This document shows, piece by piece, positions 20,659 through 44,552 of a stretch of DNA of 64,000 nucleotides (position 1 is the stretch's first letter; each line of letters begins with the position of its first letter). Position numbers and translations under genes: made by a program. The notes beneath the pieces are model-generated. The model was not told the DNA's origin, did not search any database, and saw only the letters and a program-made list of their open reading frames with translations. This stretch comes from Minisyncoccota bacterium. GTDB lineage: Bacteria > Patescibacteriota > Minisyncoccia > Phycocordibacterales > CAJQIN01. Location: positions 88,312-152,311 of the forward strand of contig CAJQIN010000002.1 in the NCBI GenBank assembly GCA_905478465.1, read 5' to 3'.

Positions 20659-23600
20659 ATGCAACACCTCGAAGGACTCAATCCAGCACAGAAAGAAGCC
20701 GTTACCACCACAGAAGGTCCGGTACTAATTGTAGCAGGAGCTGGATCAGGGAAAACTCGAGTTATCACTCACCGTATCGCACACATTGTTTCTCAAGGAA
20801 TCGAACCTGCCAATATTTTAGCGGTAACTTTCACAAATAAAGCGGCTAAAGAGATGCGTGAACGAGCAATGAAACTCCTTAGCAATGACTTCGCAACAGG
20901 ATCCACACCTTTCATTAGCACTTTCCATGCGCTCGGTGTCTTTCTTCTTCGTTCTCATTACAAAGAACTAGATATTCCAAAACATTTCACTATTTTTGAC
21001 CGAGATGATTCAAAAAAAGCTGTCAAACAAGCACTAAAGAAAAAAGGACTAGACCCAAAAGAATATGACCCTGGGAAAATTCTTAACTCCATCTCAAAAC
21101 AAAAAGGGGACTCTATTACCGTAGAAGAATTCACCGCCAATGCCTCAAGTTACTATGAGGAACTGATAGCAGACATTTGGAATGAGTACGAACGTATTCT
21201 ACAAAAAAATAGAACTTTTGATTTTGATGATCTTCTTCTAAAATCTGTATCATTTCTACGAAAACATAAAGATATCAGAGAAAAATATCACGGTATTTGG
21301 AAATACGTACATGTTGATGAGTACCAAGATACCAACCAAGTACAATATGATTTAATAAAACTACTAACAAATACTGATAACAATATATGTGTTGTGGGAG
21401 ATGGTGACCAATGCCTAATTAAAGGAACAAAAGTTACCTTAGCAGAAGGAAAAACTATAAATATTGAAAAAATAAAAAAAGATGATCTTGTTATGTCTAA
21501 CTACGGAAGTGGTGATTTCAGACCCGCAAGAGTGACTTCAGTACTCAAGAAAAAAACAAATAGTACTCTAGTACGAATACACACATCAAAAGGGAGAACA
21601 ATTGAAAGTACTCCCGAGCACATACATTTTGCAGGATATCGTCTAGGTGATACCCCGCAAAGCTATGTAACATATCTCATGTACAAAAAAAGTATTGGTT
21701 GGAGACTTGGTGTATCACAGATATATACAAATGGTGGCAAAAATACCATCGCTGGTTTTGCACAACGATCAAATCAAGAACACGCCGATGCTCTATGGAT
21801 AGTAGGGACATATACAACACCAAATGAAGCTCGTGTACACGAATACACACTGTCACTTCAATACAAAATTCCAACACTACCTTTTGTGGCGAGAAAAGGC
21901 GGAAGCACGAATGGATATGTACATGACCAAAAAATCATCAATAAAATCTTCTCATCATTTAATACAGATCAAGGTGCAAAAAAATTATTAAAAAGTCTTG
22001 GTTTATTAGAAAAATATCCTCATCACCGTCCTCAGTCACACAATAGCAATAGAAGAAATATCATCATCACACTTTGTGGAGATAGAAGAGGATCTACGCC
22101 TATGCACAGGATGAGTATGGTAGGGAATGATGTTTTAGGAAAAAAAATACTTACATCTATAGGTCTCTCTGTACGACCAGCTAAAAAAGGATCTAAAAGC
22201 TGGAGAGTCGAATCCTCATACGGCAACTACGAAGATGTTTTAGGTATCGCCGAACGTATAAACAAAGCTTTTCCCGAAGCTTCTATTATTCAAAATGCTC
22301 GCTTAGAAAAAAATAAAAAAGATGCCCGTAACAAAAACTCTTTATCCTTTATGCCAGCAGGATCTATTGTTCCCGGCATGGTGTTATTCAATGATAAAGG
22401 TGGGTACGACATTGTAAAAAAGGTAGAAGTAACAAAAAAAAGTCCTCAAACCGTATACGATCTAAATATAGAAAAAACCCACAACTACATAGCTAATGGT
22501 ATTGTTACTCATAACTGTATTTATAGCTGGAGAGGAGCGAGTATTCGCAACATCCTCACCTTCGGAGAAGATTTCTCAGACACCAAAACAATTCTTCTTG
22601 AAGAAAACTACCGTTCAACAAAAAACATTCTTGGAGCAGCTAATGAGATTATCAAAAAAAATAATAACCGTGTAGACAAAAAACTTTTTACCCAAAATGA
22701 TGTTGGTGAAAAAATAGAATGTATTGAAGGATGGTCAGAAGGGAATGAGGCAGAAAAGGTTGCTCAAAAAATAAAAGAATTGCTAGCAAACGGAACAAAT
22801 CCTAACGAGATTGTTATGTTGTATCGTGCCAATTTCCAATCCCGAGTTCTTGAAGAATCATTACTTCGTGCAGGAATTTCATATCAACTACTTGGAACAA
22901 AGTTCTTTGACCGAAAAGAAGTAAAAGATACTTTGTCTTTCATCCGAGCCGCACTCAACCCAGATAACTTGGTAGATATTGCCCGCATAATAAACACACC
23001 AGTACGTGGAATAGGAAAGGTAACTATTGCAAAAGTAATTAATGGCGAAGAAGAGACTCTAACAGGAAGAGCTCGAGAGAGTGTCCAAAAATTTAGAACT
23101 ATCCTCCAAAAAATACACAGCGAGAGCACTAACATGCTACCAAGTGAGCTTGTTCGTTTTACCTTCAAGGTAAGTGGGCTCGAAGAGTCATTCAAGTCTC
23201 AAGGAGAAGATGGGATTGAACGCTTTGAAAACGTACAAGAACTTGTGAGTCTGGCAACACGATACGACACCTACCCCGAAGAAGATCGAATTGGAGAATT
23301 TCTCTCAGATGTAGCCCTTGCCTCAGACCAAGATGAACTCATGAAAGATGGCGGGGAAGCGGTAAAGATGATGACAGTCCACGCATCAAAAGGACTCGAA
23401 TTCGATACTGTATTTATTACAGGCCTTGAAGAAGGATTATTCCCACACGAAGGAATGGGTGATGCAAAAACTGATGACGAAGAAGAACGAAGGCTTTTTT
23501 ATGTAGCAGTTACTCGAGCTAGAAAGAAAATTTTCCTTTCTTATGCAAACTCACGAACTATCTACGGAACAACAACACTAAGAGCACCTTCCCAGTTTAT

Positions 23601-23709
23601 TGCTGATATAGGAAATGAATTCTTGGAAGCAACTGCACCCGTGGAACTGGCTGACATTGATACCCAAAGAAAAAAAGGTATTAGTAGTATTTTTGATATT
23701 GATTTTTAA
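20659..23709 (+). CDS. UvrD/PcrA-type superfamily-1 DNA helicase, interrupted in-frame by an intein
   Basis: Walker A AGAGSGKT, motif II VDEYQDTN, and motif III split as VVGDGDQ | intein | CIYSWRGA. C-terminal helicase motifs are present (VHASKGLEFD, YVAVTRAR). The extein is about 648 aa. Confidence 0.85.
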   Translation: MQHLEGLNPAQKEAVTTTEGPVLIVAGAGSGKTRVITHRIAHIVSQGIEPANILAVTFTNKAAKEMRERAMKLLSNDFATGSTPFISTFHALGVFLLRSHYKELDIPKHFTIFDRDDSKKAVKQALKKKGLDPKEYDPGKILNSISKQKGDSITVEEFTANASSYYEELIADIWNEYERILQKNRTFDFDDLLLKSVSFLRKHKDIREKYHGIWKYVHVDEYQDTNQVQYDLIKLLTNTDNNICVVGDGDQCLIKGTKVTLAEGKTINIEKIKKDDLVMSNYGSGDFRPARVTSVLKKKTNSTLVRIHTSKGRTIESTPEHIHFAGYRLGDTPQSYVTYLMYKKSIGWRLGVSQIYTNGGKNTIAGFAQRSNQEHADALWIVGTYTTPNEARVHEYTLSLQYKIPTLPFVARKGGSTNGYVHDQKIINKIFSSFNTDQGAKKLLKSLGLLEKYPHHRPQSHNSNRRNIIITLCGDRRGSTPMHRMSMVGNDVLGKKILTSIGLSVRPAKKGSKSWRVESSYGNYEDVLGIAERINKAFPEASIIQNARLEKNKKDARNKNSLSFMPAGSIVPGMVLFNDKGGYDIVKKVEVTKKSPQTVYDLNIEKTHNYIANGIVTHNCIYSWRGASIRNILTFGEDFSDTKTILLEENYRSTKNILGAANEIIKKNNNRVDKKLFTQNDVGEKIECIEGWSEGNEAEKVAQKIKELLANGTNPNEIVMLYRANFQSRVLEESLLRAGISYQLLGTKFFDRKEVKDTLSFIRAALNPDNLVDIARIINTPVRGIGKVTIAKVINGEEETLTGRARESVQKFRTILQKIHSESTNMLPSELVRFTFKVSGLEESFKSQGEDGIERFENVQELVSLATRYDTYPEEDRIGEFLSDVALASDQDELMKDGGEAVKMMTVHASKGLEFDTVFITGLEEGLFPHEGMGDAKTDDEEERRLFYVAVTRARKKIFLSYANSRTIYGTTTLRAPSQFIADIGNEFLEATAPVELADIDTQRKKGISSIFDIDF
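21412..22515 (+). other. intein (368 aa, class 1: Cys1 ... His-Asn, +1 Cys) inside helicase motif III
   Basis: Block A CLIKGTKV, block B GRTIESTPEHIHF, blocks F/G VYDLNIEKTHNYIANGIVTHN, then CIYSWRGA resumes the extein. No LAGLIDADG or HNH motif is recognisable in the central region. Confidence 0.8.
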
Positions 23710-24523: not shown

Positions 24524-24874
24524 CTACAAAGATGTTCCAACAGTAGGACCTATAGTACCTTTTGGATTACCAAAAGGTGAACATCCTTTTCCTGAAGTCA
24601 TTAAACATTGTCCACCAGCATCATATAGACCAAGTGCCCACACACCTGAACGAGGGAGGCTCTGATGATCGTATTGTGGTGTTCCTGGATACCACACCCA
24701 CTGCCCATCAATAGGACCTGAAAAAGTAAGCAAAAAATTATTACTACATGTACAGTACACCGAGTTTGTAATATATCCACCAAAAACTGATGAAGTTTGT
24801 GCGTGAGTAACATACCAAACTCCTATCAAAATTAAAATACTGATTATTGCTATTGTTAGTTTTTTTCGAGACAT
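24524..24874 (-). CDS. hypothetical secreted Cys-containing protein
   Basis: Signal-peptide/TM N-terminus (LTIAIISILILIGVWYV). No recognised domain. Confidence 0.35.
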   Translation of the reverse strand: MSRKKLTIAIISILILIGVWYVTHAQTSSVFGGYITNSVYCTCSNNFLLTFSGPIDGQWVWYPGTPQYDHQSLPRSGVWALGLYDAGGQCLMTSGKGCSPFGNPKGTIGPTVGTSL

Positions 24875-24882
24875 AAATTTTA

Positions 24883-25860
24883 TTAGTATGTTAATACTAC
24901 AGTTTCTGTATTAGAAACACCATTATCATTAATAACACGAATAGTTATTGGCCATGTTACATTTTGACCCATATCAACACCATCTTCTATTCCTGGGGTA
25001 TCTGGGAAAGGACGAACCTCGAATACTAGTGTTTTTTCGTCACGAGAAGCCACACCTTCTATTACCCCATAACTAGTACGTATTTCATTATTTTTTAAAG
25101 TAAAACCTGAACCAGTCAAAGTTACTTTTTGTCCATACAAAATTTCTGACGGACTCACACTCTCAACAACAGGAGATATGATAGATGCATCTTTGATAAC
25201 AAAAAAAGTATCTGTATCTGTTTTACCCTTACTATTTTTAACCTCTAGAGCATATTTTCCATAAGAAATATCCGGCACTAAAAAACTCATAGTTTCTCCA
25301 TCAATTGATTCTACATTTTCAATTTTTGTTTCACCAAAATAAACTGTATTTATTGATTCAAAACCTAATCCATGTAATGTAATCTTTGTACCAACAGTTC
25401 CTGTGTATAGAGAAGGGTTAGCGAGAATAAGATCTTTGTATTCATGTAATACATGGGGGACAACAATTTCATCCAAAATATCTGATGACGATTCTATAGA
25501 ATTTTTTCTTGTTGACTGAGAAAATGTATTTAATTTTGCACGAGTTGATGCACCTACATATCCTGTTCCATATTCCAAACCAACAGGTTCTAGAATTTCT
25601 TTTTTATACATATTTTGAAATCGTATCACAGCATTTTTGGTAAGATTTCCAAAATAATATGTTTCATTTCCAGCAGAACCTGTGCCGCTCTGAGTAATTT
25701 GTGTTTGTATATTTGTATTCAAAAATTTCTGTAATTCATAAACATCAAAACTACTATCTCCGATCGACAAATTTTCTTCAAAGACAAATTCTGCGCTGAC
25801 AGTATGTACCATACCTAATATCACACACACTACTAATAAAGAAAGTAAGAAATGTTTCAT
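24883..25860 (-). CDS. secreted protein with putative peptidoglycan-binding domain and Ig-like repeats
   Basis: Signal peptide, a PG_binding_1-like segment (VYELQKFLN...RFQ), and beta-rich repeats. Confidence 0.45.
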   Translation of the reverse strand: MKHFLLSLLVVCVILGMVHTVSAEFVFEENLSIGDSSFDVYELQKFLNTNIQTQITQSGTGSAGNETYYFGNLTKNAVIRFQNMYKKEILEPVGLEYGTGYVGASTRAKLNTFSQSTRKNSIESSSDILDEIVVPHVLHEYKDLILANPSLYTGTVGTKITLHGLGFESINTVYFGETKIENVESIDGETMSFLVPDISYGKYALEVKNSKGKTDTDTFFVIKDASIISPVVESVSPSEILYGQKVTLTGSGFTLKNNEIRTSYGVIEGVASRDEKTLVFEVRPFPDTPGIEDGVDMGQNVTWPITIRVINDNGVSNTETVVLTY

Positions 25861-25890
25861 CTATATATAATACACGATACACTTATATTC

Positions 25891-27261
25891 ATGAAGAAAT
25901 ACATACTACCCATATTAAGTATTTTATTACTTCTCGGGACTCTTCCTTTTTGTGATCTGGGATTTATAGCATGGTTTGCTCTCGTACCACTACTTCTTTT
26001 TTTATACAACAAGAGCACAAAAAACTTCGAAGCAGCTCTCGTTTCGGGAATGGTCTTTTTTTTATATATTCTTGGTGTTCTATGGCCTCTCACAACAGTA
26101 AATGTTTGGTGGTGGTCAAATCCATCCCTATATACACACCGATATTTTTTTATTATCCTAATTGTTCTGATTACCTCTATCTATAGTGGGGGAGTATTCG
26201 GAGCTTTTTTCGGTTGGTGGGGTAAGAAAAACAACAACCCTTTTCTTCTTGGAATTATCTGGTCGATACTTGAACTTATCCGACTTCCTTTTGTTTCGCA
26301 ATTTGAATGGGGAATACTAGGATACACACAACATTCATATCCACAAATAATCTCCATAGTACACCTTATTGGACCCATAGGTCTTAGTGGATTAATAGTA
26401 CTAACCAACGGTTGTCTCGCACTCTTTCTTCTTAAAAAAGACAAAAAATACTTTTTTATCACTGGTGCTATCTTTATAACACTCTTCACTTATGGATATT
26501 TTCAAGAAAACGACCTGCCAAACAACTCTCGCACCATTCTCGTTTCAAGTCTTCATGTAGAAAAAGAGATAAAAGATTTTTATTCAGAAGATGTTGTTAC
26601 AGACACCATCAATCTTATCAAACAAGAACTGCATAAAAAACCAGATATCATTGTGCTCCCTGAAAATATTTTCCCTTTTCTAATTTTTGGAGATAATTCT
26701 TTTCCGATCTCGTACACAACTTCACCTCTTGTATCTCGAACATTCGACACCTTAATAGATATATCTATTCAATACCCAGATACAACAATCTTATTCGGTG
26801 CTCATCACCAAAGAAAAGGGAACTTATTTAACACAATACAACAGCTTTCCGGTGGGGTATTGGTGGATACCTACCAAAAGAATAGACTAATGCCTTTTGG
26901 AGAGAAAAATTTTCTTTTCCTACAAAATCAAACAGGTAAAATGACAAACGGGAAAGATCACGTACTTACCATTCATGATATACACATTAAACCCTTAGTT
27001 TGTTCTGAAATTATTCAACCTTTTAATACACATAATTCTTCCATTATTATCCAAGTAGGCAACGAAGAAATTTTTGACTCACCGTTAGTTGCTAAAGAAA
27101 ATATGATTATTTCTAAAGTAAAAGCTATTCAGCACAAAATATTTATTATTCGATCAACAAAAGGCGGAGGAACAAGTATTATTTCTTCTTCAGGTAAAAT
27201 TCTTACAAAAGAAACAATCTCTACTGAATTTATTTCACACAACATATCCATACCTCAATAG
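25891..27261 (+). CDS. lnt: apolipoprotein N-acyltransferase-like protein (polytopic N-terminus plus CN-hydrolase domain)
   Basis: Multiple N-terminal TM helices, then a nitrilase-type domain with IIVLPENIFPF (Glu) and VCSEII (Cys), comparable to the Lnt ICYEI motif. Confidence 0.55.
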   Translation: MKKYILPILSILLLLGTLPFCDLGFIAWFALVPLLLFLYNKSTKNFEAALVSGMVFFLYILGVLWPLTTVNVWWWSNPSLYTHRYFFIILIVLITSIYSGGVFGAFFGWWGKKNNNPFLLGIIWSILELIRLPFVSQFEWGILGYTQHSYPQIISIVHLIGPIGLSGLIVLTNGCLALFLLKKDKKYFFITGAIFITLFTYGYFQENDLPNNSRTILVSSLHVEKEIKDFYSEDVVTDTINLIKQELHKKPDIIVLPENIFPFLIFGDNSFPISYTTSPLVSRTFDTLIDISIQYPDTTILFGAHHQRKGNLFNTIQQLSGGVLVDTYQKNRLMPFGEKNFLFLQNQTGKMTNGKDHVLTIHDIHIKPLVCSEIIQPFNTHNSSIIIQVGNEEIFDSPLVAKENMIISKVKAIQHKIFIIRSTKGGGTSIISSSGKILTKETISTEFISHNISIPQ

Positions 27262-27377: not shown

Positions 27378-28190
27378 ATGAAAATAAAACAAACTGTACT
27401 CATAGTAACCATTGTCATAATTTCTTTCGTGGGCATATTTTTATACATACGCTCTGTAGAATTTGGAGGAAAAACACAATATACACAAAAAGAAACCATT
27501 CATCAAACCAACTCTCAAACAGCACAAAGAGTTTCTTCAACTGAGGTTATAGACGCTTTTATTGAAACTAATGAGGACCTCAATGTTCTTGATGTTCTTC
27601 ATAGTATAAATAACTCTCTGACCGAAAGATTTCTCACTTATTATGATGAAAAAATCGGCCTTGAAACTCAAGGTGTCGACATACCTACCCGAGAAAAAGT
27701 TCTTCGTGATTTTCTAGTACAAGAAAATTTTGAAAACATACTCAAAAATTACCCCTTATACACAACAACAGACCTGAGAACTGTTGCCGCATCAGAAAAT
27801 ACATTCGCTCAATACAAAAAAGGTTTCGAAACAAGTGTTGCTTTGAATTTAAAAATATCTGAACTTGAAAATGAATTGTCTGTGTTTAGAAAAGCTCAAA
27901 CGATGACAAATAAACAACATAAGGAAATTGAAATACAAAAATTAACAGGCATTCAAAAAAATTATACTGCCCTTAGAGACTCTTTACTTCTTTTGTATGT
28001 CCCATCAGATGCTTTAATTATTCACCTTGATCTAGTTAATTCAATCAATTTTATTATAAATCGTATTGAAGGTATGCAAACATTAATCGCAGATCCTCTT
28101 CGTGCGCAAATATATGCCAGTTCATACGAAAAAGATGCTCACATTTTTATTGATTCTTATACAAAATTAACATCTTATTTATCTAAATAA
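27378..28190 (+). CDS. hypothetical membrane-anchored protein (first gene of the secretion-system-like cluster)
   Basis: N-terminal TM helix. No recognised domain. Confidence 0.4.
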   Translation: MKIKQTVLIVTIVIISFVGIFLYIRSVEFGGKTQYTQKETIHQTNSQTAQRVSSTEVIDAFIETNEDLNVLDVLHSINNSLTERFLTYYDEKIGLETQGVDIPTREKVLRDFLVQENFENILKNYPLYTTTDLRTVAASENTFAQYKKGFETSVALNLKISELENELSVFRKAQTMTNKQHKEIEIQKLTGIQKNYTALRDSLLLLYVPSDALIIHLDLVNSINFIINRIEGMQTLIADPLRAQIYASSYEKDAHIFIDSYTKLTSYLSK

Positions 28191-28263
28191 TACACAACAT
28201 GTTAGTAGGGTATTTATTAAAAACAAGCTACAATAATATGTATAATCATATAATATTCAAACT

Positions 28264-29325
28264 ATGAAATATTCCTATACACAAAATATATCTACCTACT
28301 TTTGTTCCATACTTGTTATATCACTCTTCATAACCCCGTCTTTTTCTTTTGCCCAGCAAAAAGTTCCTGTTATTGATGAAAGTCACATAGAAGTAAGTCA
28401 GCAAATTTTGAATGTCCTCACAACTCTAATGGAAAAAGAGCTACAAAAAGATCCATTAGAAGAGGCTGCAGCAAAACAAGAGCTCGCAGATAGCACTCAA
28501 GAAGAGATTGAATATATCCAAGAAGGGTACAAAGGATATCTTCAAAACGCCTATCTTCCTGGAATAGGGGATATCGACACTTCTTTTTTTGAAACAGACC
28601 TAGAGGAATTCTATAACAGCGTTAGAGAAAGTGAATTTAATCGCTTCATGGAAGAAAACTTTGGGTATGATTTTAACTCTGATGAAACCACTTTTAACCC
28701 TGATCCAAATAATGAACATCCTGGACAAAATCTTAATGTCATAGGAACAGCTTTACGCGCAAAATACGACAACACTTCTGAAGGATACACACTTGATACT
28801 GTCACAGGAGGATCTGAAAATACCCAAGCTTTTCTAGAAGGAGACTTTAGCCAAGGAGGCTGGGATGCGTGGTACTCACTCTCTCAAAACCCTGAAAATA
28901 ATGCCTACGGACAATACTTCCAAGCATCAGAGTCTCTCGACAATCAAATATCAAAAAATATTGTTATTGAGGAGCAGAAACTAGAATGGGGGCAAGGATT
29001 TCATGCCTTAGAAAAAGCTGACGGAACCATTACAACTCCAAGTGTTTTAAACCTAAACCAACTCAACCAAGCAATTTCAACATGTAACAATTCCCTCGAA
29101 GCTATCGATGAATACACAGGTGAATTACTACCTGATAGTCTTGGTAATATGTGTGATGCCATTCGCGAGGGACTAAACAGTACCACAGGACTTCTCGAAA
29201 CAAATTTTGATTTTGCTGAACTGTTTGACTTAGATTTTAGTGGTCTTGTACAGGATTTATTACACGGAGTTGATATGGCAGGCAGTGTTCTTAACCATGT
29301 TGATTTAGGAGGTATCGGCCTTTAA
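28264..29325 (+). CDS. hypothetical secreted protein
   Basis: Signal peptide ending ...SFSFAQQ. Acidic, no recognised domain. Confidence 0.4.
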   Translation: MKYSYTQNISTYFCSILVISLFITPSFSFAQQKVPVIDESHIEVSQQILNVLTTLMEKELQKDPLEEAAAKQELADSTQEEIEYIQEGYKGYLQNAYLPGIGDIDTSFFETDLEEFYNSVRESEFNRFMEENFGYDFNSDETTFNPDPNNEHPGQNLNVIGTALRAKYDNTSEGYTLDTVTGGSENTQAFLEGDFSQGGWDAWYSLSQNPENNAYGQYFQASESLDNQISKNIVIEEQKLEWGQGFHALEKADGTITTPSVLNLNQLNQAISTCNNSLEAIDEYTGELLPDSLGNMCDAIREGLNSTTGLLETNFDFAELFDLDFSGLVQDLLHGVDMAGSVLNHVDLGGIGL

Positions 29326-29334
29326 AAAAATATT

Positions 29335-31527
29335 GTGACCAAAGGAATTAGAAACAGCTTTATACTTAGTATCATATTCTGCATAGGATTTATTTTTGCT
29401 GTACCACAAATGGCACATGCCCAAACAAACCAGTCTTCACCTTGGCAATCAACTACACTTACAAATGAAACTGTAGATATTGCAAATTGTGGTTCTGACT
29501 TTACTTGTCATGGGAAAAAAATAATAGCCTACACCATAATTTTTACAGGGAACACCCTCCTTAGAATATTCTCTTGGATCACATGGATAGGCGGAACTTT
29601 CCTTAATACAGTACTCTTGGTCACGGTGGTAAACATGTCAGGTATTGTAGAAAAGACGTCTGCCATTCAAGATGGATGGAAAATCATTAGGGATCTGTCA
29701 AATATTGCCTTTATCTTTGTACTTCTGTATATATCAATATCAACCATATTAGATTTAGGGGTTAACACAGGAAAAGCTTTACGTAGTGTTGTTATAGCTG
29801 CTTTATTTATAAACTTCTCCTTCTTTTTTGCAGCAACAATTATTGACGTATCCAACATACTAACCTTACATCTCTACGACCAAATTCTTACTCCAAGTAA
29901 TCAGTCTGCAACTGGTACGTCTAGTGACGTTAATAGCGACACAGACCCAAATAGCAGGTCTAGCGTAGGATTATCCGGAAAAATGCTTGAGAAACTAGGT
30001 GTTCCCACACAAGTATTTAGTTTCCCAGATGATGCTGAGTTAAATAATACATGGAATAATCTAGGTACTTTTTTTGTCAAAATACTTGGCGGTATCTTCC
30101 TCCTTATTGTTTCTTCTTTTATTTTTATTGCAGCCGGTATCATGTTCTTGTACCGTTTTGTTATTTTCGTATTTCTTCTTATATTTTCCCCTATTGCCTT
30201 TTTAGGAATGATTTTGCCTCAAACAAAAAGTACAGCCTCTGCTTGGTGGAAATCTCTCACGGACAATGCTCTTTTTGCCCCGGTTTACATGGTACTTACT
30301 TTTATTGCATTAGAAATAGTTGGATCTCTTCATACACAAATATCTGCTGTTGCTAATTCAAGTAATCAAAAAATACTCCTTGATCCAACCGCTTTTTTAA
30401 ACTTTGTTATCGTTGCAGCTTTTCTGCTCGGATCACTAATTATCTCTAAAAAATATGCAACAGCAAGTGCAGGGACAGCAACATCTCTAGCCGGGAAAGC
30501 TGTCTTTGGAAAATACGGACTAGGTGGAGCAAGTAGATTTGCAGGAAGACGAATTGGCGCCGGTATCAAAGAAAACAAGTATATAAATAACCTTGTTGAT
30601 GGTGAACGAAGTAATGTCGCAGGACGCTGGGCAGGACGTTTAGCATTACGCACAGGAGATAAGATTGAAAAAGGAACCTATGATGCACGAAAAACACTTA
30701 ACTCCTTAGGAAGCTCTCTAGGTGAAAAGAATGCATTTGGCAAAAGTGTAAGTAGAAAAGATCTTGATAAAAACCAAAAAGACAAAGAACAAGCAATAAT
30801 TGACGCTATGGCACCAACCCAACACACCATCAGTCAGGCCGAGGCAGACCTTACCGAATCAAGGAAAAAATATATTCAAATAAAAGACACCTTCGACAAA
30901 GACCCTATCACCAAAAAAATTAATACAAAAATTGAAATAGCCGAAAAAGAATTAATGGAGGCAAAGAAAGCTCTAGGAAGTGAAGATGATATGAAAAAAC
31001 TTGCGCAAAAAGAAAGATCATCTGGGAACATCAAAGAAGCAAGAAATATTGAAGAAGTTTTTGCAAAGAAAAAATCTACCTTAGCAACCATGGAAGCAGA
31101 TCTCTCTTCATATAGAAAAGAGAAGTCCGGCCATAAAAAAACTTTAGGGGTAACAGAGGCGGAAGAACAACTGGAGCCGTATCAGAAAAAGATGGATACT
31201 CTAAAAGGTGTCGATGATAAAGAAGCCCTCAAACGTGCTAAAAATAATACTAAACAAGCGGAAGATGAGGATGACAAAGCGTATAAAAAACGTGTTGAGA
31301 AAGAAGCTCGAGGTTTACAACAAAAAAGCCAACAAGAAGCAAGGACCACGCGCCATATTGAAGATGCAGAAAACTCAATGTTCCAACCTAAACGCGAACG
31401 AGAAAATCGAGTTGCACTTCTTAAAAAAATGACTAAAAAGCAAAGCGCAGCAGATCTTCTAGAAGGATTTATTAAAGAAACATCATCAAGTAGTAGCCCA
31501 GCCAAAAATCCTGATGATGAAAATTAA
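29335..31527 (+). CDS. large polytopic membrane protein with charged coiled-coil C-terminal tail (possible VirB6/PrgH-like channel component)
   Basis: Signal peptide, at least 6 predicted TM helices, and a K/E-rich 250-aa C-terminus. The VirB6-like role is assigned from context only. Confidence 0.4.
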   Translation: MTKGIRNSFILSIIFCIGFIFAVPQMAHAQTNQSSPWQSTTLTNETVDIANCGSDFTCHGKKIIAYTIIFTGNTLLRIFSWITWIGGTFLNTVLLVTVVNMSGIVEKTSAIQDGWKIIRDLSNIAFIFVLLYISISTILDLGVNTGKALRSVVIAALFINFSFFFAATIIDVSNILTLHLYDQILTPSNQSATGTSSDVNSDTDPNSRSSVGLSGKMLEKLGVPTQVFSFPDDAELNNTWNNLGTFFVKILGGIFLLIVSSFIFIAAGIMFLYRFVIFVFLLIFSPIAFLGMILPQTKSTASAWWKSLTDNALFAPVYMVLTFIALEIVGSLHTQISAVANSSNQKILLDPTAFLNFVIVAAFLLGSLIISKKYATASAGTATSLAGKAVFGKYGLGGASRFAGRRIGAGIKENKYINNLVDGERSNVAGRWAGRLALRTGDKIEKGTYDARKTLNSLGSSLGEKNAFGKSVSRKDLDKNQKDKEQAIIDAMAPTQHTISQAEADLTESRKKYIQIKDTFDKDPITKKINTKIEIAEKELMEAKKALGSEDDMKKLAQKERSSGNIKEARNIEEVFAKKKSTLATMEADLSSYRKEKSGHKKTLGVTEAEEQLEPYQKKMDTLKGVDDKEALKRAKNNTKQAEDEDDKAYKKRVEKEARGLQQKSQQEARTTRHIEDAENSMFQPKRERENRVALLKKMTKKQSAADLLEGFIKETSSSSSPAKNPDDEN

Positions 31528-32128
31528 CAATATGGAAACACAAAAAGAAATACACAACATAATAGGTACCCAATTAGAACAACTTCCTGAAAATGTTCGT
31601 TTGTACATTGAAAGCAAGGTCTGGGACACAGCCCTAGAAGAACTCCTAATAAAAGATGTAATTACTCACAAATATTCTGAAGAAATAAAGTATGAGATAT
31701 TCTTTTATCTTCTTGGACTTCGAGATAAAAATGAAACAATCAAAAAAATACAAGATATACCAGAAGAAACTGAATCTCTTAATAAAAATATAGATTTTTT
31801 CTCAGTTATTCCAGACACTATCCAAAAAGAACTTGCCGACATATTGAGCCCTGAAGAAACTCCCGTATCCGACGAAAGATTAGGAGGTGTTGAAATAACA
31901 CATGAATCACAAACAAAAAATGAAGAAGATATAGTACCTGAACGAGAAAATGTAATGCAAGGAATTGAACACCCAGAAAACATAACTTCACAATCAGAAA
32001 CAATATCTAATCCTATTGGATCCAAATTAAAAAAAACTACTGAAAGTAGCACCGTACCACTAGGAGATAACCCTAGTAGAAGAGGGTACGCAGAAGGACA
32101 AGACCCTTACAGAGAAGCCTTAAACTAA
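31514..32128 (+). CDS. hypothetical acidic protein
   Basis: 204-aa ORF that overlaps the upstream gene by 14 nt. Confidence 0.4.
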   Translation: MMKINNMETQKEIHNIIGTQLEQLPENVRLYIESKVWDTALEELLIKDVITHKYSEEIKYEIFFYLLGLRDKNETIKKIQDIPEETESLNKNIDFFSVIPDTIQKELADILSPEETPVSDERLGGVEITHESQTKNEEDIVPERENVMQGIEHPENITSQSETISNPIGSKLKKTTESSTVPLGDNPSRRGYAEGQDPYREALN

Positions 32129-32236
32129 TTACCAATACTTAAACCTACTACATACCCATAACAAGCTTTGCTTGTTATGGGTATGTAGTTCATAATTAAG
32201 GTAGTTAATATTTCTCTAAAAAAATAAACACACCCT

Positions 32237-32665
32237 ATGCGCTATCAAGTACCACAATTTATAGAAGTTGAAGACAAAATATTTGGACCCCTAACCTTAA
32301 AGCAATTTATTTATCTAGGTGGATCTATTGGTATTATTGTGGTTATTTTTAGTTTTACACCAAGAATTCTAGCCTTTATTCTATCTACCCCCGTTGTTGC
32401 TCTTGGTCTTGCTTTAGCATTTTATAAAGTAAACAATAAGCCTTTTCTAGAAATGATAGAGGCATTTTTTCACTATAATACAAATGGAAAACTATATATA
32501 TGGCATAAAACTGCTAGAAAAATCAAAAAAGGGTCTGAGCAAACAGACAGAAGAACTTTAGAAGTTCCTAAACTTGCAAATAGTAAGCTTAAAGACCTTA
32601 CATGGACCCTTGATGTAAAGGAACAAAACAATCCCATTACAAAAGAAACTAATCCACCTGTATAA
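32237..32665 (+). CDS. PrgI/VirB3-like small membrane protein
   Basis: VPQFIEVEDKIFGPLTLKQFIYLGG followed by two TM helices. It sits immediately upstream of a VirB4-like ATPase, as in Gram-positive conjugative T4SS. Confidence 0.5.
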   Translation: MRYQVPQFIEVEDKIFGPLTLKQFIYLGGSIGIIVVIFSFTPRILAFILSTPVVALGLALAFYKVNNKPFLEMIEAFFHYNTNGKLYIWHKTARKIKKGSEQTDRRTLEVPKLANSKLKDLTWTLDVKEQNNPITKETNPPV

Positions 32666-32692
32666 AGACGTAACCTGCGTTATACTATCTAT

Positions 32693-33319
32693 ATGTCATC
32701 ACGTAATTCAAAAGCAACCCAAGATTTTATTCCTGTAGAAGAGATAAGAGATGGTGTTGCGATTCTAAAAGATGGTTCTTTGAGGTCAATTATCATGGCT
32801 TCTTCTGTTAACTTTGCCCTCAAGTCAGATGATGAAAGAACTTCTATTCTTTTTCAATTTCAAAACTTTCTTGATTCTCTAGATTTCTCTGTACAAATAG
32901 TCATCCAGTCACGTCGACTTGATATTCGACCATATCTTGCACTCCTTGAGGAACGTCAAAAGGTTCAGATGAACGACTTAATGAAAATGCAAACACGAGA
33001 ATATATTGGTTTCATAAAAAAATTCACAGAAAGTGTCAGCATCATGACAAAAAACTTCTTCGTAGTAGTATCTTATTCTCCCTCTACACTAGGATCTAAA
33101 AAAGGTGGTTTTATGAAAAAGAAATCTTCAAAAACTAAAGACGTAAATTTTTCTTTTGAAGAAAATTTGAGTCAATTAAACCAGAGAATGTCTGTTGTTG
33201 AACAAGGTCTTTCACGAACAGGTGTACGTGTTGCTCACTTAGGAACAGAGGAGGTGACGGAACTTTTTTATAAATTATTTAATCCTGGAGAGACTGAAAA
33301 ACCAATTAAAATGCAATAA
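32693..33319 (+). CDS. VirB4-like ATPase N-terminal domain (separate ORF or frameshifted part of the next gene)
   Basis: 208 aa. It ends 1 nt before the ATG of the ATPase-domain ORF, and the combined length (about 811 aa) equals a full VirB4. Confidence 0.4.
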   Translation: MSSRNSKATQDFIPVEEIRDGVAILKDGSLRSIIMASSVNFALKSDDERTSILFQFQNFLDSLDFSVQIVIQSRRLDIRPYLALLEERQKVQMNDLMKMQTREYIGFIKKFTESVSIMTKNFFVVVSYSPSTLGSKKGGFMKKKSSKTKDVNFSFEENLSQLNQRMSVVEQGLSRTGVRVAHLGTEEVTELFYKLFNPGETEKPIKMQ

Positions 33320-33320
33320 T

Positions 33321-35132
33321 ATGGGAATTTTTGATTTTTTAAAGAAAAATAATGACAAAGACTTTGATATAAGCACAATTATGCCTGACAACATCTACGA
33401 GGCTAATGCACTTGAATTAAAGGATATTCTTGCACCAAGTGCACTCGAGATCACCCCAAGAGAGATACGTCTTGGAGATAAAGTGTTACGAAGTTTTTTT
33501 GTTATTTCATATCCGAGATTTCTTGCAGAAAGCTGGTTTGCACCAATCATCAATCTGGACAAAATGTTTGATATCACTATCCATATTCATCCTATTGAAA
33601 CATCTATTATTCTCAGAAAATTTCAAAAAAAAGTAGCCGAAATACAAAGTCAGATTAATGAAAGGGAAGAGAAGGGACTTGTTCGAGATCCAAAACTAGA
33701 TACTGCCTATCAGGACCTAGAGGACCTCAGAGACAAACTCCAGCAAGCACAAGAGCGTCTTTTTGATGTAGGACTATACATCACCCTTTATGCAGATAAT
33801 ACAGAAGAATTAGACAAAATTGAATCTGAAATTAAATCTATTCTAGAATCAAAACTGGTTTATGTTAAACCGGCTTTATTTCAACAAGAACAAGGTTTCA
33901 AATCAACTTCACCTATTGCAACAGACCTTTTAGGAGTTCATACGAAATTAAATTCCTCTCCTCTATCAAGTATTTTTCCTTTCATCTCATTTGACCTTAC
34001 ATCAGACAAAGGAGTTCTTTATGGTATCAACCGTCACAACTCTAGTCTTGTGCTTTTTGACAGATTCTCTCTTGAAAACTACAACTCAATTACTTTCGCA
34101 AAGTCTGGTTCCGGAAAATCCTATGCAACAAAACTTGAACTCCTGCGTTCTCTTATGTTTGATACAGAAGTCATTATCATAGACCCTGAAAATGAATATG
34201 AATACATGGCAGAAGCGGTAGGGGGTAGATTCTTCAAAATATCACTTAGTTCTCAACACCACATCAACCCCTTTGACCTACCTATTCCCCGAGAAGATGA
34301 ATCCCCAGCAAGTGTTCTGCGCTCAAACATTATTCACCTTGTAGGACTTTTCCGTATTATGCTCGGAGGCCTTACAGCAGAAGAGGATGCTATTGTTGAT
34401 CGAGCCATCACTGAAACATATGCTTTGAAAGATATTTCTCCAGACTCTAATTTCGCAGATATTGATGCCCCTCTTATGTCTGATTTTGAATTAGTACTAT
34501 CTGGTATGGAAGGCGGAGAGTCTCTTGCACAACGTCTCAGCAAGTACACCAAAGGTACTTGGGCAGGCTTTATTAACAAACCATCGAATGTAGATCTAGA
34601 TAAGAAATTTATTGTATTTTCTATTCGAGATATGGAAGACGAACTCAAGCCCGTAGCCATGTACATCATTACCCACTTCATCTGGAATGCTGTTAGAAAA
34701 GACCTCCGAAAACGCCTTCTTGTAATAGATGAGGCTTGGTGGATGATGAAATCTGAAGACACAGCATCTTTCTTGCTCAATGTGGCAAAAAGAGGACGTA
34801 AATACTATTTAGGACTTCTAACCATCACACAAGATGTCGGCGACTTCCTAAACTCTCCTTACGGACTTCCTATTATCACCAACTCTTCAATGCAACTTTT
34901 ATTAAAACAATCTCCAACCGCCATCGATAAACTACAGGAAGTATTCAATCTGACAGACGAGGAAAAATATCTACTTCTTGAATCTCAAATAGGGGAGGGC
35001 ATATTCTTCGCAGGACTTAAACATGTAGCTATAAAAATCATTGCTTCCTACACAGAGGACCAAATTATTACCTCAGATCCATCTCAAATCTTAGCAATTC
35101 AAAAAGCCAAAAGAGAGTTAGAGCAATCATAA
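33321..35132 (+). CDS. VirB4/TrbE/PrgJ-like type IV secretion ATPase (C-terminal ATPase domain)
   Basis: Walker A FAKSGSGKSYATK, IIIDPENEY, Walker B LLVIDEAWWMM, and RKYYLGLLTITQDVGDF. This is the VirB4 (AAA-like/DUF87) signature set. Confidence 0.85.
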   Translation: MGIFDFLKKNNDKDFDISTIMPDNIYEANALELKDILAPSALEITPREIRLGDKVLRSFFVISYPRFLAESWFAPIINLDKMFDITIHIHPIETSIILRKFQKKVAEIQSQINEREEKGLVRDPKLDTAYQDLEDLRDKLQQAQERLFDVGLYITLYADNTEELDKIESEIKSILESKLVYVKPALFQQEQGFKSTSPIATDLLGVHTKLNSSPLSSIFPFISFDLTSDKGVLYGINRHNSSLVLFDRFSLENYNSITFAKSGSGKSYATKLELLRSLMFDTEVIIIDPENEYEYMAEAVGGRFFKISLSSQHHINPFDLPIPREDESPASVLRSNIIHLVGLFRIMLGGLTAEEDAIVDRAITETYALKDISPDSNFADIDAPLMSDFELVLSGMEGGESLAQRLSKYTKGTWAGFINKPSNVDLDKKFIVFSIRDMEDELKPVAMYIITHFIWNAVRKDLRKRLLVIDEAWWMMKSEDTASFLLNVAKRGRKYYLGLLTITQDVGDFLNSPYGLPIITNSSMQLLLKQSPTAIDKLQEVFNLTDEEKYLLLESQIGEGIFFAGLKHVAIKIIASYTEDQIITSDPSQILAIQKAKRELEQS

Positions 35133-35139
35133 AATAATT

Positions 35140-35661
35140 ATGGAATCAATAAAACGACCAAGGTCTTTAACAAAAAAGAACTTACCCACAAAGGTATCTA
35201 ACAAAGAAAATCAACCTAATACACACATAAACAGTCCTAAAAAAGAAGTATCTTATCGAATATCATGGACCACAGCTTTTTTAATGATATCCCTGACCAT
35301 CGTCTTCGACCTAACTGAAATTATCATCGACTGGCTAGGTAATCTAACAGCAGCTTTTGGACTTGGTTTATTATTCTGGGGTCTCAATATTGGTGGTGTT
35401 ATTTTTATGGGTCTAACTTTTTTTGTCTGGTTTAAAATAAAAAATATTCCCATATTCACAAGTCCTAAAAGAATAGCTACGTCAGCGATTACTTTTATAG
35501 GAGAAATGATTCCTGTTATTAACAACCTTCCGGGATGGACAATAGGTATTATTGTAATAATTATAATAAGTAGATCTGAAGATAGGGGTGGTATCATAGG
35601 GAAAGCAACATCTATAACAAAAAACCTCAAAGGAAAAGCTTCTGTGGGGAAAAAAGGTTAA
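35140..35661 (+). CDS. hypothetical polytopic membrane protein
   Basis: 3-4 predicted TM helices. No recognised domain. Confidence 0.4.
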   Translation: MESIKRPRSLTKKNLPTKVSNKENQPNTHINSPKKEVSYRISWTTAFLMISLTIVFDLTEIIIDWLGNLTAAFGLGLLFWGLNIGGVIFMGLTFFVWFKIKNIPIFTSPKRIATSAITFIGEMIPVINNLPGWTIGIIVIIIISRSEDRGGIIGKATSITKNLKGKASVGKKG

Positions 35662-35691
35662 AGAAATAGAAAATTACGCTATACTATATAT

Positions 35692-36399
35692 ATGAAATAT
35701 TTTTTCTATATTTTTGTTTTTAGTTTTATATTTGCATCAAATATTCCGTATATTTATGCTCAAGAAACAAATTCTTCTGTTAATATTGTTTGGTATGCAA
35801 ACGACTCTTATGTCCCAAATTTTTACAAAGGAAAAGCTCTTCGTTCAGAGTACACAAGCACTACATTAACGGCAATACCTCAAATAAACTATCAAGGTAC
35901 TCTTATTCAAAATTCTGAATTAAATTTTACATGGAAAGTAAACGGAAAAACTTTACAAAACTCAGGATTAGGTAAAAACCAAATAACAATCAAGAATTCT
36001 CTAACATCAAACTCTCCTGAGGTCAGCATTGTTGTCACATCTACGCGCACAGGTCTTTCTGCACAATCATCTTTACAACTACCTGAGTATGAATCTAGAG
36101 TACTACTCTATGAAAACGATCCTCTTTTAGGAATTTTATATAATAAAGCCCTTCTTTCAACATTTTCTGTACAAAATAAAGAAGTAACCCTAAAAGCTAT
36201 ACCGTACTACTTCACAAAAGATGCTCTAGGCTATACATGGAAAATAAATGGAAACACTTTTTCATCAACAGCTCTTGAAGACGGTATCACTCTCAGAAAA
36301 GATGATGCGTCTTCAGGAAGTTCTCAATTAAGTATTTTTGTAAAATCTTTGAAAAATATTTTACAAAAAGAAACCTCTAATCTTACTATCACTTTTTAA
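35692..36399 (+). CDS. hypothetical secreted protein
   Basis: Signal peptide. Beta-rich with repeated WK(V/I)NG(K/N)T segments. Confidence 0.4.
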   Translation: MKYFFYIFVFSFIFASNIPYIYAQETNSSVNIVWYANDSYVPNFYKGKALRSEYTSTTLTAIPQINYQGTLIQNSELNFTWKVNGKTLQNSGLGKNQITIKNSLTSNSPEVSIVVTSTRTGLSAQSSLQLPEYESRVLLYENDPLLGILYNKALLSTFSVQNKEVTLKAIPYYFTKDALGYTWKINGNTFSSTALEDGITLRKDDASSGSSQLSIFVKSLKNILQKETSNLTITF

Positions 36400-36401
36400 A
36401 A

Positions 36402-37037
36402 ATGAAAAAAATACTATTTCTTATAACATTATGGAGTCTGCCAATTTTGTCTTTTGCCCAAGGGACTGCTGGTAATGCTCAACAATATGTCCCCCTTGTA
36501 TCAGACCTTCCTGAAATAATTACAAGTAGTTCTTCTTTTGGAGATTATCTTACTGGTTGGTTTCAACTAATCCTTGGCCTTGTCACCGTCCTTGCAGTTA
36601 TATGGATCACATTAGGAGGTATCAAATATATGTCAACAGATGCTTACTCAGGGAAATCAGAAGGGAAAAAAATGGTTCAAAACGCTATTATAGGACTTCT
36701 TTTAGCGGGAGTATCTTGGCTTATTCTATTCACTATTAATCCCGCTATTTTAAATGTGAATCTTAATTTTACACAACAAGAATCTCAAGATTTTTCAGTA
36801 ACAACAAATATACCTACAGACTCAGGCTCTCTGGAAACCTACTATTGTTTTGTTTGGTATAAAGAAACTTTTTATTTCAGAAACCTGACAGACCCTGCCG
36901 AATCTTGTTTTGTAGATAAAAAAGATTGCACAAAAGCTCGTGCAATAAAAAGAGCTGAATCAGTTAACATGGCCACTTCCCATTGTGCCGAAGCAGAAAG
37001 AGACAGCGCAGCATTATATAAAAACTCAATACAATAA
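36402..37037 (+). CDS. VirB2/TrbC-like pilin candidate with Cys-containing C-terminal extension
   Basis: Signal peptide, then two hydrophobic helices separated by a short charged loop (the TrbC/VirB2 topology), plus an 80-aa C-terminal region with 4 Cys. Confidence 0.4.
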   Translation: MKKILFLITLWSLPILSFAQGTAGNAQQYVPLVSDLPEIITSSSSFGDYLTGWFQLILGLVTVLAVIWITLGGIKYMSTDAYSGKSEGKKMVQNAIIGLLLAGVSWLILFTINPAILNVNLNFTQQESQDFSVTTNIPTDSGSLETYYCFVWYKETFYFRNLTDPAESCFVDKKDCTKARAIKRAESVNMATSHCAEAERDSAALYKNSIQ

Positions 37038-38269
37038 TGACAAAAAAAATTACAATTATACTAACTACGTTAATTCTTATTACAAGTATTGCTTTTGGTA
37101 TCCGCTACTATTTCTTTAACACCTCCATACAAACAAACACAGCAACATCTACTTCTTTTACTAATAATATTTTTGGTTTTCTTGGTATAGGATCCGATAA
37201 TCAGAATGTGGCAGACCAACCCATTAACAAAGTGTCTAATACCAACACCCTGACCAACACTGTTATACCCACACTTAGGCATATCACCGAAAATCCTGTT
37301 GCAGGAGCAACGTTTGTTGGGACAAGTACTATTCGTTACGCGAACAGAGGAAATGGACATATTTTTGAGACACCAACAAACTCTCTGGAAACGGTTAAGA
37401 TTTCTAATACTACCATTCCAAAAGTATACGAAGCTTACTGGGTAAACAATGGAGAGAATGTGATCTACCGACGCCTTAAAGAAAATACAAACACTATCGA
37501 AACCAGTTTTCTTGAGTTACGAACTAAAACAGGTAGCACCACAGATTTTCTACGAGATACCATCATCACTTTTTTACCTGACAACATTACCGATCTTGCG
37601 GTATCAGTGAACACCGATAATATTGCTTACATTCTTCCAATAGACTCTTCTGCTCAAATCACCACAAGCAACCCTGATGGCTCATCACCTTCTTCTTTTT
37701 CTATACCTCATCCATCATGGACACTCTCATGGACAGATTCAAACATCCTTACTATTGTTCCTAAAACAGCTTCTAATGTTTTAACATCGATGTATTCTAT
37801 ATCCAAAACCAAAAACCTTATGCAAGAAATCGACGACAACCCTGGTCTAACAATACTAAACACACCTAAACGAACACTGTATTCATTCTCAACAAAAAAC
37901 TCTTTATTTCTGGAAGTAAAAAATTCTGACGACTTGGTTATTTTACTGTACCCATCAACTCTCCCAGAAAAATGCACCCCTACAGATACCACACATGTAA
38001 TATGTGGAGTTCCCACATCAATTCCACAAGCCTCATATCCTGAAAACTGGTACCAAGGTGTAGTTTCATTTATCGATGAAATACGTACATACAATCTTGA
38101 AACAGGAGAATCTGTTATAACATACACACCCCAAGAAGAATTCGACATAATCAATCCTCAAATATCTTCTGACGGAAAATACTTTATGTTCACAAATAAA
38201 AAAGATTTAAGCCTTTGGGTATTAAACCTTGATGAAGTAGGGGAGGAGACAACGGTAAACACTTTCTAA
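37037..38269 (+). CDS. hypothetical membrane-anchored extracytoplasmic protein (possible beta-propeller)
   Basis: N-terminal TM helix and an S/T/N-rich beta-rich body. The C-terminal SDGKYFMFTN...LWVLNL resembles TolB-like propeller blades. Confidence 0.35.
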   Translation: MTKKITIILTTLILITSIAFGIRYYFFNTSIQTNTATSTSFTNNIFGFLGIGSDNQNVADQPINKVSNTNTLTNTVIPTLRHITENPVAGATFVGTSTIRYANRGNGHIFETPTNSLETVKISNTTIPKVYEAYWVNNGENVIYRRLKENTNTIETSFLELRTKTGSTTDFLRDTIITFLPDNITDLAVSVNTDNIAYILPIDSSAQITTSNPDGSSPSSFSIPHPSWTLSWTDSNILTIVPKTASNVLTSMYSISKTKNLMQEIDDNPGLTILNTPKRTLYSFSTKNSLFLEVKNSDDLVILLYPSTLPEKCTPTDTTHVICGVPTSIPQASYPENWYQGVVSFIDEIRTYNLETGESVITYTPQEEFDIINPQISSDGKYFMFTNKKDLSLWVLNLDEVGEETTVNTF

Positions 38270-38300
38270 AAAGAAAAACACTTCAGACATGAAGTGTTTT

Positions 38301-38765
38301 TTATATCGTATTCTCTACATAACTAAGGACCACTCTACGATCCCTACCATCTCCCTCTGAATGAGTTTTGATGTCGTCCTGATCTGTAAACACAGAGTGG
38401 ACGATCATCCTTTCAAAAGCATTCATTGGCTCCATATCAACACTGGCTTTAAACGAACGTACACGTTCTCCTGCAAAGATAGCTTTTTGTTTTATAGATT
38501 CAATCTGTTTTTTATAAAAATCATCAACATCTATCTGAAATCTTGGCACATCTTCATATTTTTGAGCCACCATTCGACTAACAACATGATTGAGTGCACG
38601 AAACACATCTCCGTCACGTCCAATGAGAGTTTGAGCCTCTTTAGAGTGCACAGAGAACACCAACACTGGTTCACTACATTCAATACTTTCTTCTACAATT
38701 TCTTCATATGAAATATCCATCTTATCCAACACATCTTTAATTGTTTGAATGATATTATTTTTCAT
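38301..38765 (-). CDS. jag: Jag/KhpB-like RNA-binding protein (KH and R3H domains)
   Basis: C-terminal R3H motif (ERMIVHSVFT). Positioned downstream of yidC as in the conserved rpmH-rnpA-yidC-jag cluster. Confidence 0.75.
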   Translation of the reverse strand: MKNNIIQTIKDVLDKMDISYEEIVEESIECSEPVLVFSVHSKEAQTLIGRDGDVFRALNHVVSRMVAQKYEDVPRFQIDVDDFYKKQIESIKQKAIFAGERVRSFKASVDMEPMNAFERMIVHSVFTDQDDIKTHSEGDGRDRRVVLSYVENTI

Positions 38766-44542: not shown

Positions 44543-44552
44543 GGCAAATAAC

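Follow-up and report, generated by a model that had tools for sequence, protein, structure and literature searches.

A type IV secretion-like gene cluster beside dnaA and dnaN in a Patescibacteria chromosome

Gene content, position and conservation of the cluster

In this report, we describe a cluster of genes encoding an apparatus that resembles a type IV secretion system (T4SS), found in a 64,000-nucleotide stretch of contig CAJQIN010000002.1 from a Minisyncoccota bacterium of the Patescibacteria. This whole stretch, at its full length, is termed the window. Eleven consecutive plus-strand open reading frames (ORFs) of 142 to 730 aa, all of them intact, fill window positions 27378 to 38269 (Table 1). 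A preliminary description of this DNA had counted twelve co-directional genes; the common direction and the tight packing are borne out, but the count is 11, both in the ORF listing and in the public gene calls for the identical contig. The intergenic distances, from gene 1 to gene 11, are 73, 9, -14, 108, 27, 1, 7, 30, 2 and -1 nt, the start of gene 11 sharing one base with the stop of the pilin gene, and the 11 tightly packed genes form an operon-like unit beside oriC. Profile searches with the cluster ORFs confirm the T4SS families PrgI/VirB3, CD1110-type VirB4, VirB2-like T4SS_pilin and a TrsD/TraC-like ORF, which are matched above curated cut-offs.

Upstream of the cluster lie ksgA, two minus-strand surface-type genes and one gene with an Lnt_N domain. 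Downstream, on the minus strand, are found jag, yidC, rnpA and rpmH and, beyond these, dnaA and dnaN, and the cluster therefore adjoins the replication origin. The GC content is even across the region, without any compositional anomaly around the cluster. A hairpin just beyond gene 11 is likely to be a bidirectional terminator that ends the cluster, while a promoter scan was uninformative (47 sites found for 42.7 expected).

This arrangement is widely shared. We fetched 80 species-representative loci (L006-L085) and searched them with the window proteins; 41 of them have full 10-kb flanks. PrgI, TrsD, VirB4 and gene 11 are found in all 41 of these fully flanked loci, the VirB6-like gene, gene 9 and the pilin in 40 and gene 2 in 38, and their relative positions are constant. 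The flanking genes recur as well, with ksgA in 37 of the 41, yidC and dnaA in 40 each and dnaN in 39. The faster-evolving genes 1, 4 and 8 were recovered by profile iteration in 50 to 68 of all the fetched loci, and the Paceibacteria loci that have enough flank contain all 11 families in unchanged order. Median identities are 79% for VirB4, 62% for TrsD, 61% for DnaA, 53% for PrgI, 49% for YidC, 48% for DnaN and 48% for KsgA; for the exported T4SS proteins, identity across the 41 loci is about 30%. These values indicate a cytoplasmic motor under stronger constraint than DnaA, and exported parts that diverge fast. Because gene order and flanks are fixed and VirB4 is conserved above DnaA, we read the locus as a vertically inherited core machine, and not as a mobile element or the remnant of one.

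The surroundings agree with the preliminary description, which had seen neither a relaxase nor VirD4. Pfam scans of all the non-cluster ORFs of at least 250 aa in the window, and of a selection of shorter ones, returned no relaxase, no VirD4 or other type IV coupling protein (T4CP) and no integrase. The view was then extended by about 8 kb upstream and 9 kb downstream through gene calls with precomputed Pfam hits, and no relaxase, coupling protein or integrase was detected there either. Within these ~80 kb, neither the relaxase and T4CP nor the integration or maintenance module or foreign context of a conjugative element was found.

Table 1. Features of the cluster and of other parts of the window (window coordinates)
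Feature	Position	Strand	Description	Basis
Gene 1	27378-28190	+	270 aa; bitopic, N-terminal membrane anchor and extracytoplasmic domain	hydropathy
Gene 2	28264-29325	+	353 aa; Sec-secreted, very acidic, net charge -45	hydropathy
Gene 3	29335-31527	+	730 aa; polytopic, VirB6/TrbL-like, charged C-terminal domain of ~350 aa	sub-threshold PF04610, topology
Gene 4	31514-32128	+	204 aa; soluble acidic cytoplasmic protein	helical N-domain, disordered linker, C-terminal DPYRE
Gene 5	32237-32665	+	142 aa; PrgI/VirB3-like small membrane protein, two transmembrane helices	PF12666
Gene 6	32693-33319	+	208 aa; TrsD/TraC-like, predicted detached VirB4 N-terminal domain	NCBIfam, PF26593
Gene 7	33321-35132	+	603 aa; VirB4 ATPase, middle domain and P-loop motor	NF045971, P-loop_TraG
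Gene 8	35140-35661	+	173 aa; small polytopic membrane protein, basic N-terminus, ~3 transmembrane segments	hydropathy
Gene 9	35692-36399	+	235 aa; Sec-secreted, repeated beta-rich (immunoglobulin-like) modules	signal-peptide-like N-terminus, repeats
Gene 10	36402-37037	+	211 aa; VirB2-like T4SS pilin	PF18895; topology
Gene 11	37037-38269	+	410 aa; N-terminally membrane-anchored extracytoplasmic beta-propeller	AlphaFold2 model
Hairpin	38274-38301	.	12-bp stem with A-run and T-run flanks, between convergent gene 11 and jag	terminator scan, consensus match only
Type IV pilin	5852-6418	-		N_methyl
Wall hydrolase	18076-19035	-	9 kb upstream of the cluster	LysM, Peptidase_M23
PcrA/UvrD helicase	20659-23709	+	1016 aa; intein at residues ~250-620	Intein_splicing, Hint
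Defence-like gene	43883-44542	+		DUF4145
Defence-like gene	44553-44900	+	MazG-like	
Defence-like gene	44897-45895	+	HNH endonuclease	
Defence-like gene	45892-47190	+		GmrSD_N domain
PilB	54838-56511	-		PilB/T2SSE

Motor, channel, pilin and accessory families

Gene 7 encodes the motor of the system. Its product reaches 366 bits, for a cut-off of 325, against the NCBIfam model NF045971 ("VirB4-like conjugal transfer ATPase, CD1110 family"), and it also matches Pfam P-loop_TraG (E=4e-25) and the VirB4 model of Mycoplasma integrative and conjugative elements (ICEs; E=4e-81). The motifs KSGSGKSY (Walker A, GSGKS), IIDPENEY, LLVIDEAWWMM (Walker B) and LLTITQD can be read in the translation, Walker A and B being intact. 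The preliminary description had named a VirB4-family ATPase from these motifs, and the profile search agrees, placing the protein in the VirB4 CD1110 family and not with FtsK, HerA or TraG. Among the VirB4 models, the highest scores are those of monoderm types (CD1110 and Mycoplasma ICE). All of the 8000 scored VirB4 candidates have E<=1e-20, and the 120 matches listed share 79-100% identity with the query at lengths of about 600 aa; among those with a source name, the labels are Parcubacteria, Paceibacteria or Wolfebacteria. Marine metagenome contigs as long as 275 kb carry the exact VirB4 of gene 7, and the nearest plasmid-borne VirB4s, from Actinobacteria and Firmicutes, are at most 36% identical.

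Gene 7 aligns to residues 220-772 of PrgJ from pCF10 (26% identity, E=5e-41), so that the initial ~200 residues of VirB4 in its full-length form have no counterpart in it. Gene 6, which had been left unassigned, aligns with the N-terminal ~200 positions of the full-length VirB4 models in NCBIfam (VirB4_plasma, 2e-11; TrsD NF041427, 9.5e-7; TIGR00929, 6.9e-6), and has a precomputed Pfam match to PF26593, TraC-like. By these alignments, gene 6 is the predicted split-off N-terminal (TrsD-like) domain of VirB4 and supplies what is absent from gene 7. The two are separate ORFs in 78 of the 78 loci where both were found, mostly 1-7 nt apart (a few overlaps and wider spacings come from the automatic choice of start codons), and because they are separate in all of these loci, the split is not a frameshift. 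The PrgI/VirB3-like protein had been placed directly upstream of the ATPase. Its identity stands, since gene 5 scores 38.2 bits against PF12666 PrgI (gathering threshold 27), with a hydrophobic stretch at residues 19-65, but gene 6 intervenes between the two.

The polytopic channel-like protein noted earlier is gene 3. It has a signal peptide, then about 6-7 hydrophobic segments within residues 81-375, then a hydrophilic tail, a VirB6-like topology whose layout fits the "extended VirB6" architecture. Its match to PF04610 TrbL (residues 147-365, E=1.1e-4) stays at 22.5 bits, under the gathering threshold of 25.9, and TrbL is matched by 3 of 33 members of the family, which is conserved in 60 loci. 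The tail found only coiled-coil proteins among PDB sequences, a result that we judged to be noise.

Gene 10, noted earlier as a downstream protein of TrbC/VirB2 topology, is confirmed as a pilin by PF18895 T4SS_pilin (28.9 bits, gathering threshold 26.6), which 31 of 34 relatives also match. It consists of a signal peptide, two transmembrane helices and a 92-aa C-terminal extension with four cysteines, and is the sole pilin of the VirB2-like type in the window. The C-terminal region differs in length and sequence among relatives, whose pilins are usually longer (median ~297 aa, maximum 555) because of this extension. An H-x-x-G-x-x-x-D motif occurs in about 11 of the 34, followed near the C-terminus by G-E/P-H-Y/F in all three such pilins inspected, and two relatives match the full 70-residue Peptidase_M15_4 model below threshold (E=5e-4 and 2e-3). 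Examples are L048:13703-14512, L074:3655-4446, L032:14580-15425 and L060:13361-14251. The extended pilin of these relatives may thus be a pilin fused to a wall peptidase of the LAS type.

The remaining genes, 1, 2, 4, 8, 9 and 11, had been described as having no recognisable domains and as perhaps specific to the lineage. They prove to be conserved syntenic Paceibacteria families, and their recurrence shows them to be fixed-order members of the predicted apparatus, not idiosyncratic genes. An all-against-all hhalign comparison found no internal paralogy among eight accessory families, and the families of genes 1, 2, 3, 9 and 11 gave nothing specific against PDB sequences.

Four of these genes encode exported proteins or anchored ones facing outwards. 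Gene 1 has one strong hydrophobic segment (residues 1-31), and its window copy has no match in Pfam, NCBIfam or PDB sequences. The family occupies the same position in 50 related loci, where its members have DxDxDG repeats of the calcium-binding type that the window copy is without; only these relatives match calmodulin-type calcium repeats in PDB sequences. Gene 2 has a signal-peptide-like N-terminus ending FA-QQ, and its family lies directly upstream of the VirB6-like gene in 52 related loci. The relatives often carry C-terminal F5/8 type C, bacterial immunoglobulin-like or InlB B-repeat domains and have a common cysteine-containing core, degenerate in the window copy. Two family members (three at E<=0.1) have a short match to DUF4141 just after the signal peptide, which we take as a lead only; in conjugative transposons of Bacteroides, DUF4141 proteins are encoded between traG and traJ. 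This faintly suggests a surface adhesin, perhaps in the position of VirB5/TraI. An AlphaFold2 model of gene 2, built from three sequences only, was unusable (predicted local distance difference test, pLDDT, 34). Gene 9, whose family is found in 72 loci, has the repeat motif Y-x-W-x-x-NG, and relatives of about 335 aa have a third repeat; its profile matches, to immunoglobulin-type domains and BiPBP_C, are weak only.

Gene 11 is the sole gene of this set with a usable structure model, and what it shows is a propeller and not a VirB8. The model, built from 77 sequences (mean pLDDT 88.5; predicted template modelling score 0.80), has a transmembrane helix at residues 2-27, a disordered linker and 27 strands, in which we count about seven four-stranded blades. 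Foldseek searches of the PDB return only generic WD40, tricorn and Lp49 propellers (TM-score ~0.5), and the profile search gives a marginal TolB match. In two relatives, the protein is fused to the peptidoglycan-binding domain PG_binding_1.

The two others are of different types. Gene 4 has no hydrophobic segment and matches no known family in Pfam or NCBIfam. Its family lies between the VirB6-like and PrgI genes in 68 loci and has a long, disordered and often proline-rich linker, and DPYRE(P)xx forms the C-terminus of 63 of 69 members; the window copy reads ...QDPYREALN. An apparent fusion of PrgI with gene 4, seen when their profiles merged during iteration, was rejected, since a run of N in locus L035 had produced it. 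Gene 8 has hydrophobic segments at residues 44-66, 70-100 and 123-144 and a net charge of +13; its family immediately follows virB4 in 66 loci, and it has no match in Pfam or NCBIfam.

Relation to known systems and possible function

The closest counterpart is the T4SS of the Patescibacteria themselves. In a survey of 3,035 genomes of the phylum, Quinonero-Coronel et al. (2025, Microb Genom) found 2,425 VirB4s in a clade nested within the FATA type of mating-pair formation systems (MPF-FATA), with TrsD as the commonest associated component and with PrgI/VirB3, VirB6 and pilins of PF18895 or PF04956 near virB4 (PMC12102498). VirB8 is scarce in the phylum, and in the Paceibacteria and Microgenomatia the T4SS cluster lies near dnaA, dnaN, rnpA, ksgA and rpmH (PMC12102498). 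The locus described here has the same MPF-FATA-affine VirB4, separate TrsD, PrgI/VirB3, putative VirB6-like protein and PF18895 pilin, together with an identical relaxase-less state and dnaA, dnaN, rnpA and ksgA neighbourhood. There is no difference in kind; what the present case adds is that six unannotated neighbours are fixed-order families, one of them modelled as a propeller.

The T4SS of Southlakia epibionticum ML1 (SEML1_0006-0019) is essential for epibiotic growth and resembles Gram-positive conjugative systems; its predicted pilins are essential, and neither a relaxase nor a coupling protein is recognisable in it (Wang et al. 2023, Cell; PMC10633639). It shares with our locus the Gram-positive-type subunit set, the predicted pilins and the lack of a relaxase or coupling protein at the locus, and its low locus-tag numbers suggest a place early in the genome record, as judged from the numbers and not from a distance to oriC. 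It differs in belonging to the Saccharimonadia, in its array of six divergent pilins and in the essential peptidase and lysozyme genes downstream of virB4, whereas the window cluster has one pilin gene and no hydrolase, and essentiality has been shown for Southlakia only. A 2025 review calls these systems the first T4SS essential to its own bacterium and suggests the pilus as a possible conduit to the host (PMC12857230), and the authors of a 2026 preprint suggest a possible T4SS pilus identity for tubules seen at a parasite-host interface (bioRxiv 10.64898/2026.06.21.733656).

Among plasmid systems of the MPF-FATA type (pCF10 Prg/Pcf and pGO1/pSK41 Trs), the likeness lies in the PrgI family protein and the CD1110-type VirB4 and, for pGO1, in the TrsD-like N-domain made as a separate protein. 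Further products of pCF10 are a VirD4-like T4CP, a relaxase, the hydrolase PrgK, PrgL, which is VirB8-like, and the adhesins PrgB and PrgC of the LPXTG type; none of these was detected in the window cluster. pCF10 itself is without a VirB2 pilin. Indeed, hhalign found no significant match between our family alignments and pCF10 PrgH (gene 3 family), PrgL (gene 1 family), or PrgF and PrgG (gene 8 family). Helicobacter ComB, archaeal Ced, Bordetella Ptl and Brucella VirB are likewise VirB4-based and relaxase-less, and Ptl and Brucella VirB also work without a T4CP; ComB, Ptl and Brucella VirB, but not Ced, are diderm systems with VirB7/9/10 outer-membrane cores, of which no components are found here.

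We therefore favour, with a probability of about 0.8, a chromosomal T4SS of the Patescibacteria (the candidate phyla radiation, or CPR) in its Paceibacteria arrangement, derived from MPF-FATA systems, without a link to DNA processing and with a gained VirB2-like pilin. In such a machine, TrsD and VirB4 would dock on PrgI and the VirB6-like channel, and VirB4 would power the extraction of the Sec-inserted pilin and its polymerisation, giving a pilus or tube that crosses the monoderm wall. Genes 1, 2, 9 and 11 would make up the wall-spanning and host-contact module, and the whole could serve for contact-dependent exchange with a host cell, in which host macromolecules are imported or proteins exported, rather than for conjugation. 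Host contact or transfer is thus the probable function. A bolder version is that the six accessory genes and the pilin with its variable surface domain form a Paceibacteria-specific wall-spanning, host-docking module by which a conjugation motor of Gram-positive type would have become a feeding tube tipped with a pilus, which, if true, would import host macromolecules; we regard this as doubtful.

Several points weigh against the favoured assignment. The function, with its pilus, substrate and host, is wholly inferred from the gene content. The VirB6 assignment is under the Pfam threshold, and no VirB8-like or VirB1-like component was found in the cluster by sequence, profile or hhalign comparison. 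The ~80 kb inspected belong to a genome of probably 0.5-0.7 Mb, in which a VirD4-like protein may exist (PMC12102498). The essentiality data come from another class, the Saccharimonadia, with its six-gene pilin array and adjacent hydrolases, and the probable membership of the VirB4 clade is judged from model scores and identities.

A working conjugative or DNA-export system, with its relaxase and coupling protein encoded elsewhere on the chromosome, would be consistent with this limited view of the genome, particularly since the coupling-protein gene is often far from virB4 and VirD4-like genes are present in 2,918 of the 3,035 genomes surveyed (PMC12102498). However, relaxases were found in only 103 of the 3,035, and the t4cp homologue of S. 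epibionticum is non-essential while its T4SS genes are essential (PMC12102498). A fixed core locus beside oriC with no oriT-associated genes, and a motor conserved above DnaA, are not expected of a mobile element either. We hold such a system to be quite improbable, because relaxases are rare in the phylum and the locus is a core, origin-proximal one. The decaying remnant of an integrated conjugative element would explain why relaxase, coupling protein and integrase were not found and why VirB4 appears "split" in two ORFs, but 11 of 11 ORFs are intact, the TrsD/VirB4 split is kept in 78 loci, and the cluster keeps its synteny with housekeeping flanks across 41 species, with VirB4 79% identical and no compositional anomaly. 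These conservation data effectively exclude it.

An apparatus for DNA uptake (competence), like Helicobacter ComB or archaeal Ced, would feed DNA or nucleotides to a cell unable to make them. The cluster is relaxase-less, the same organism has type IV pili, and in the class ABY1 the T4SS is co-localised with comF, recG and radA (PMC12102498); gene 7 also has a weak local match to the CedB model NF041017 (E=9e-9). This match reaches only ~34.5 bits for a cut-off of 700, however, no competence genes adjoin the cluster, and Pfam and NCBIfam detected no Ced or ComB partner proteins among its ORFs. Moreover, deletion of comEC in S. epibionticum ended transformation but not viability, comEC being dispensable while the T4SS genes, including the pilins, remain essential (PMC10633639, PMC12857230). 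On the strength of the comEC result and of the far sub-threshold CedB score, we consider DNA uptake unlikely.

The favoured reading, a Patescibacteria T4SS in its Paceibacteria arrangement, is not a discovery, since the relaxase-less, pilin-bearing T4SS was described across the phylum in 2023-2025. Host interaction or DNA uptake in place of conjugation, which the preliminary description had also preferred, has likewise already been proposed in print (PMC10633639, PMC12102498, PMC12857230). The locus is thus a clean and complete Paceibacteria example of a known system. The additions are modest: the predicted propeller of gene 11, the conserved set of six accessory genes, and the lectin-type (gene 2) or possible peptidase (pilin) appendages in relatives. 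The Patescibacteria T4SS is nonetheless one of a small number of machines by which these ultra-small bacteria, poor in biosynthesis, are thought to live at the expense of host cells, and the propeller, the fixed accessory set and the contrast in constraint between motor and exported parts can help in choosing targets for structural or genetic work.

Other genes in the neighbourhood

Outside the cluster, housekeeping genes predominate among the window ORFs (RNase Y, CCA-adding enzyme, PNPase, PBP1, PolA, RuvABC and others, with a class I aminoacyl-tRNA synthetase of the Trp/Tyr type, PilB and an intein-bearing PcrA/UvrD), and the flanks beyond the window add nothing else of note than type IV pilus and housekeeping genes. 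The type IV pilus genes named in the preliminary description are present as an N_methyl pilin and a PilB, and just outside the window there are a further PilB with PilC on the upstream side (L087:1-2572) and PilM on the downstream side (L088:15997-16989). The LysM and Peptidase_M23 wall hydrolase listed in Table 1 is of a type that, according to the 2025 survey, may substitute for VirB1 (PMC12102498).

Three genes fill the interval between ksgA and the cluster (24524-27261). Two of them, on the minus strand, encode a 116-aa cysteine-rich membrane-anchored protein and a surface protein with TIG and PG_binding_1 domains, which recurs in 19 of the 41 relatives. The other encodes a 469-aa protein that has only the LNT_N domain of apolipoprotein N-acyltransferase, in an organism presumed to be monoderm. 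A tblastn search for this Lnt-like gene was positive in 0 of the 41 species loci; in L004, a close relative with 93% identity in VirB4, the corresponding position does hold an LNT_N gene. The PcrA/UvrD of L004 is 648 aa long with no intein match. Finally, a short way downstream of dnaN, the window has a run of defence-like genes (43883-47190), in place of which L004 has a penicillin-binding protein gene.

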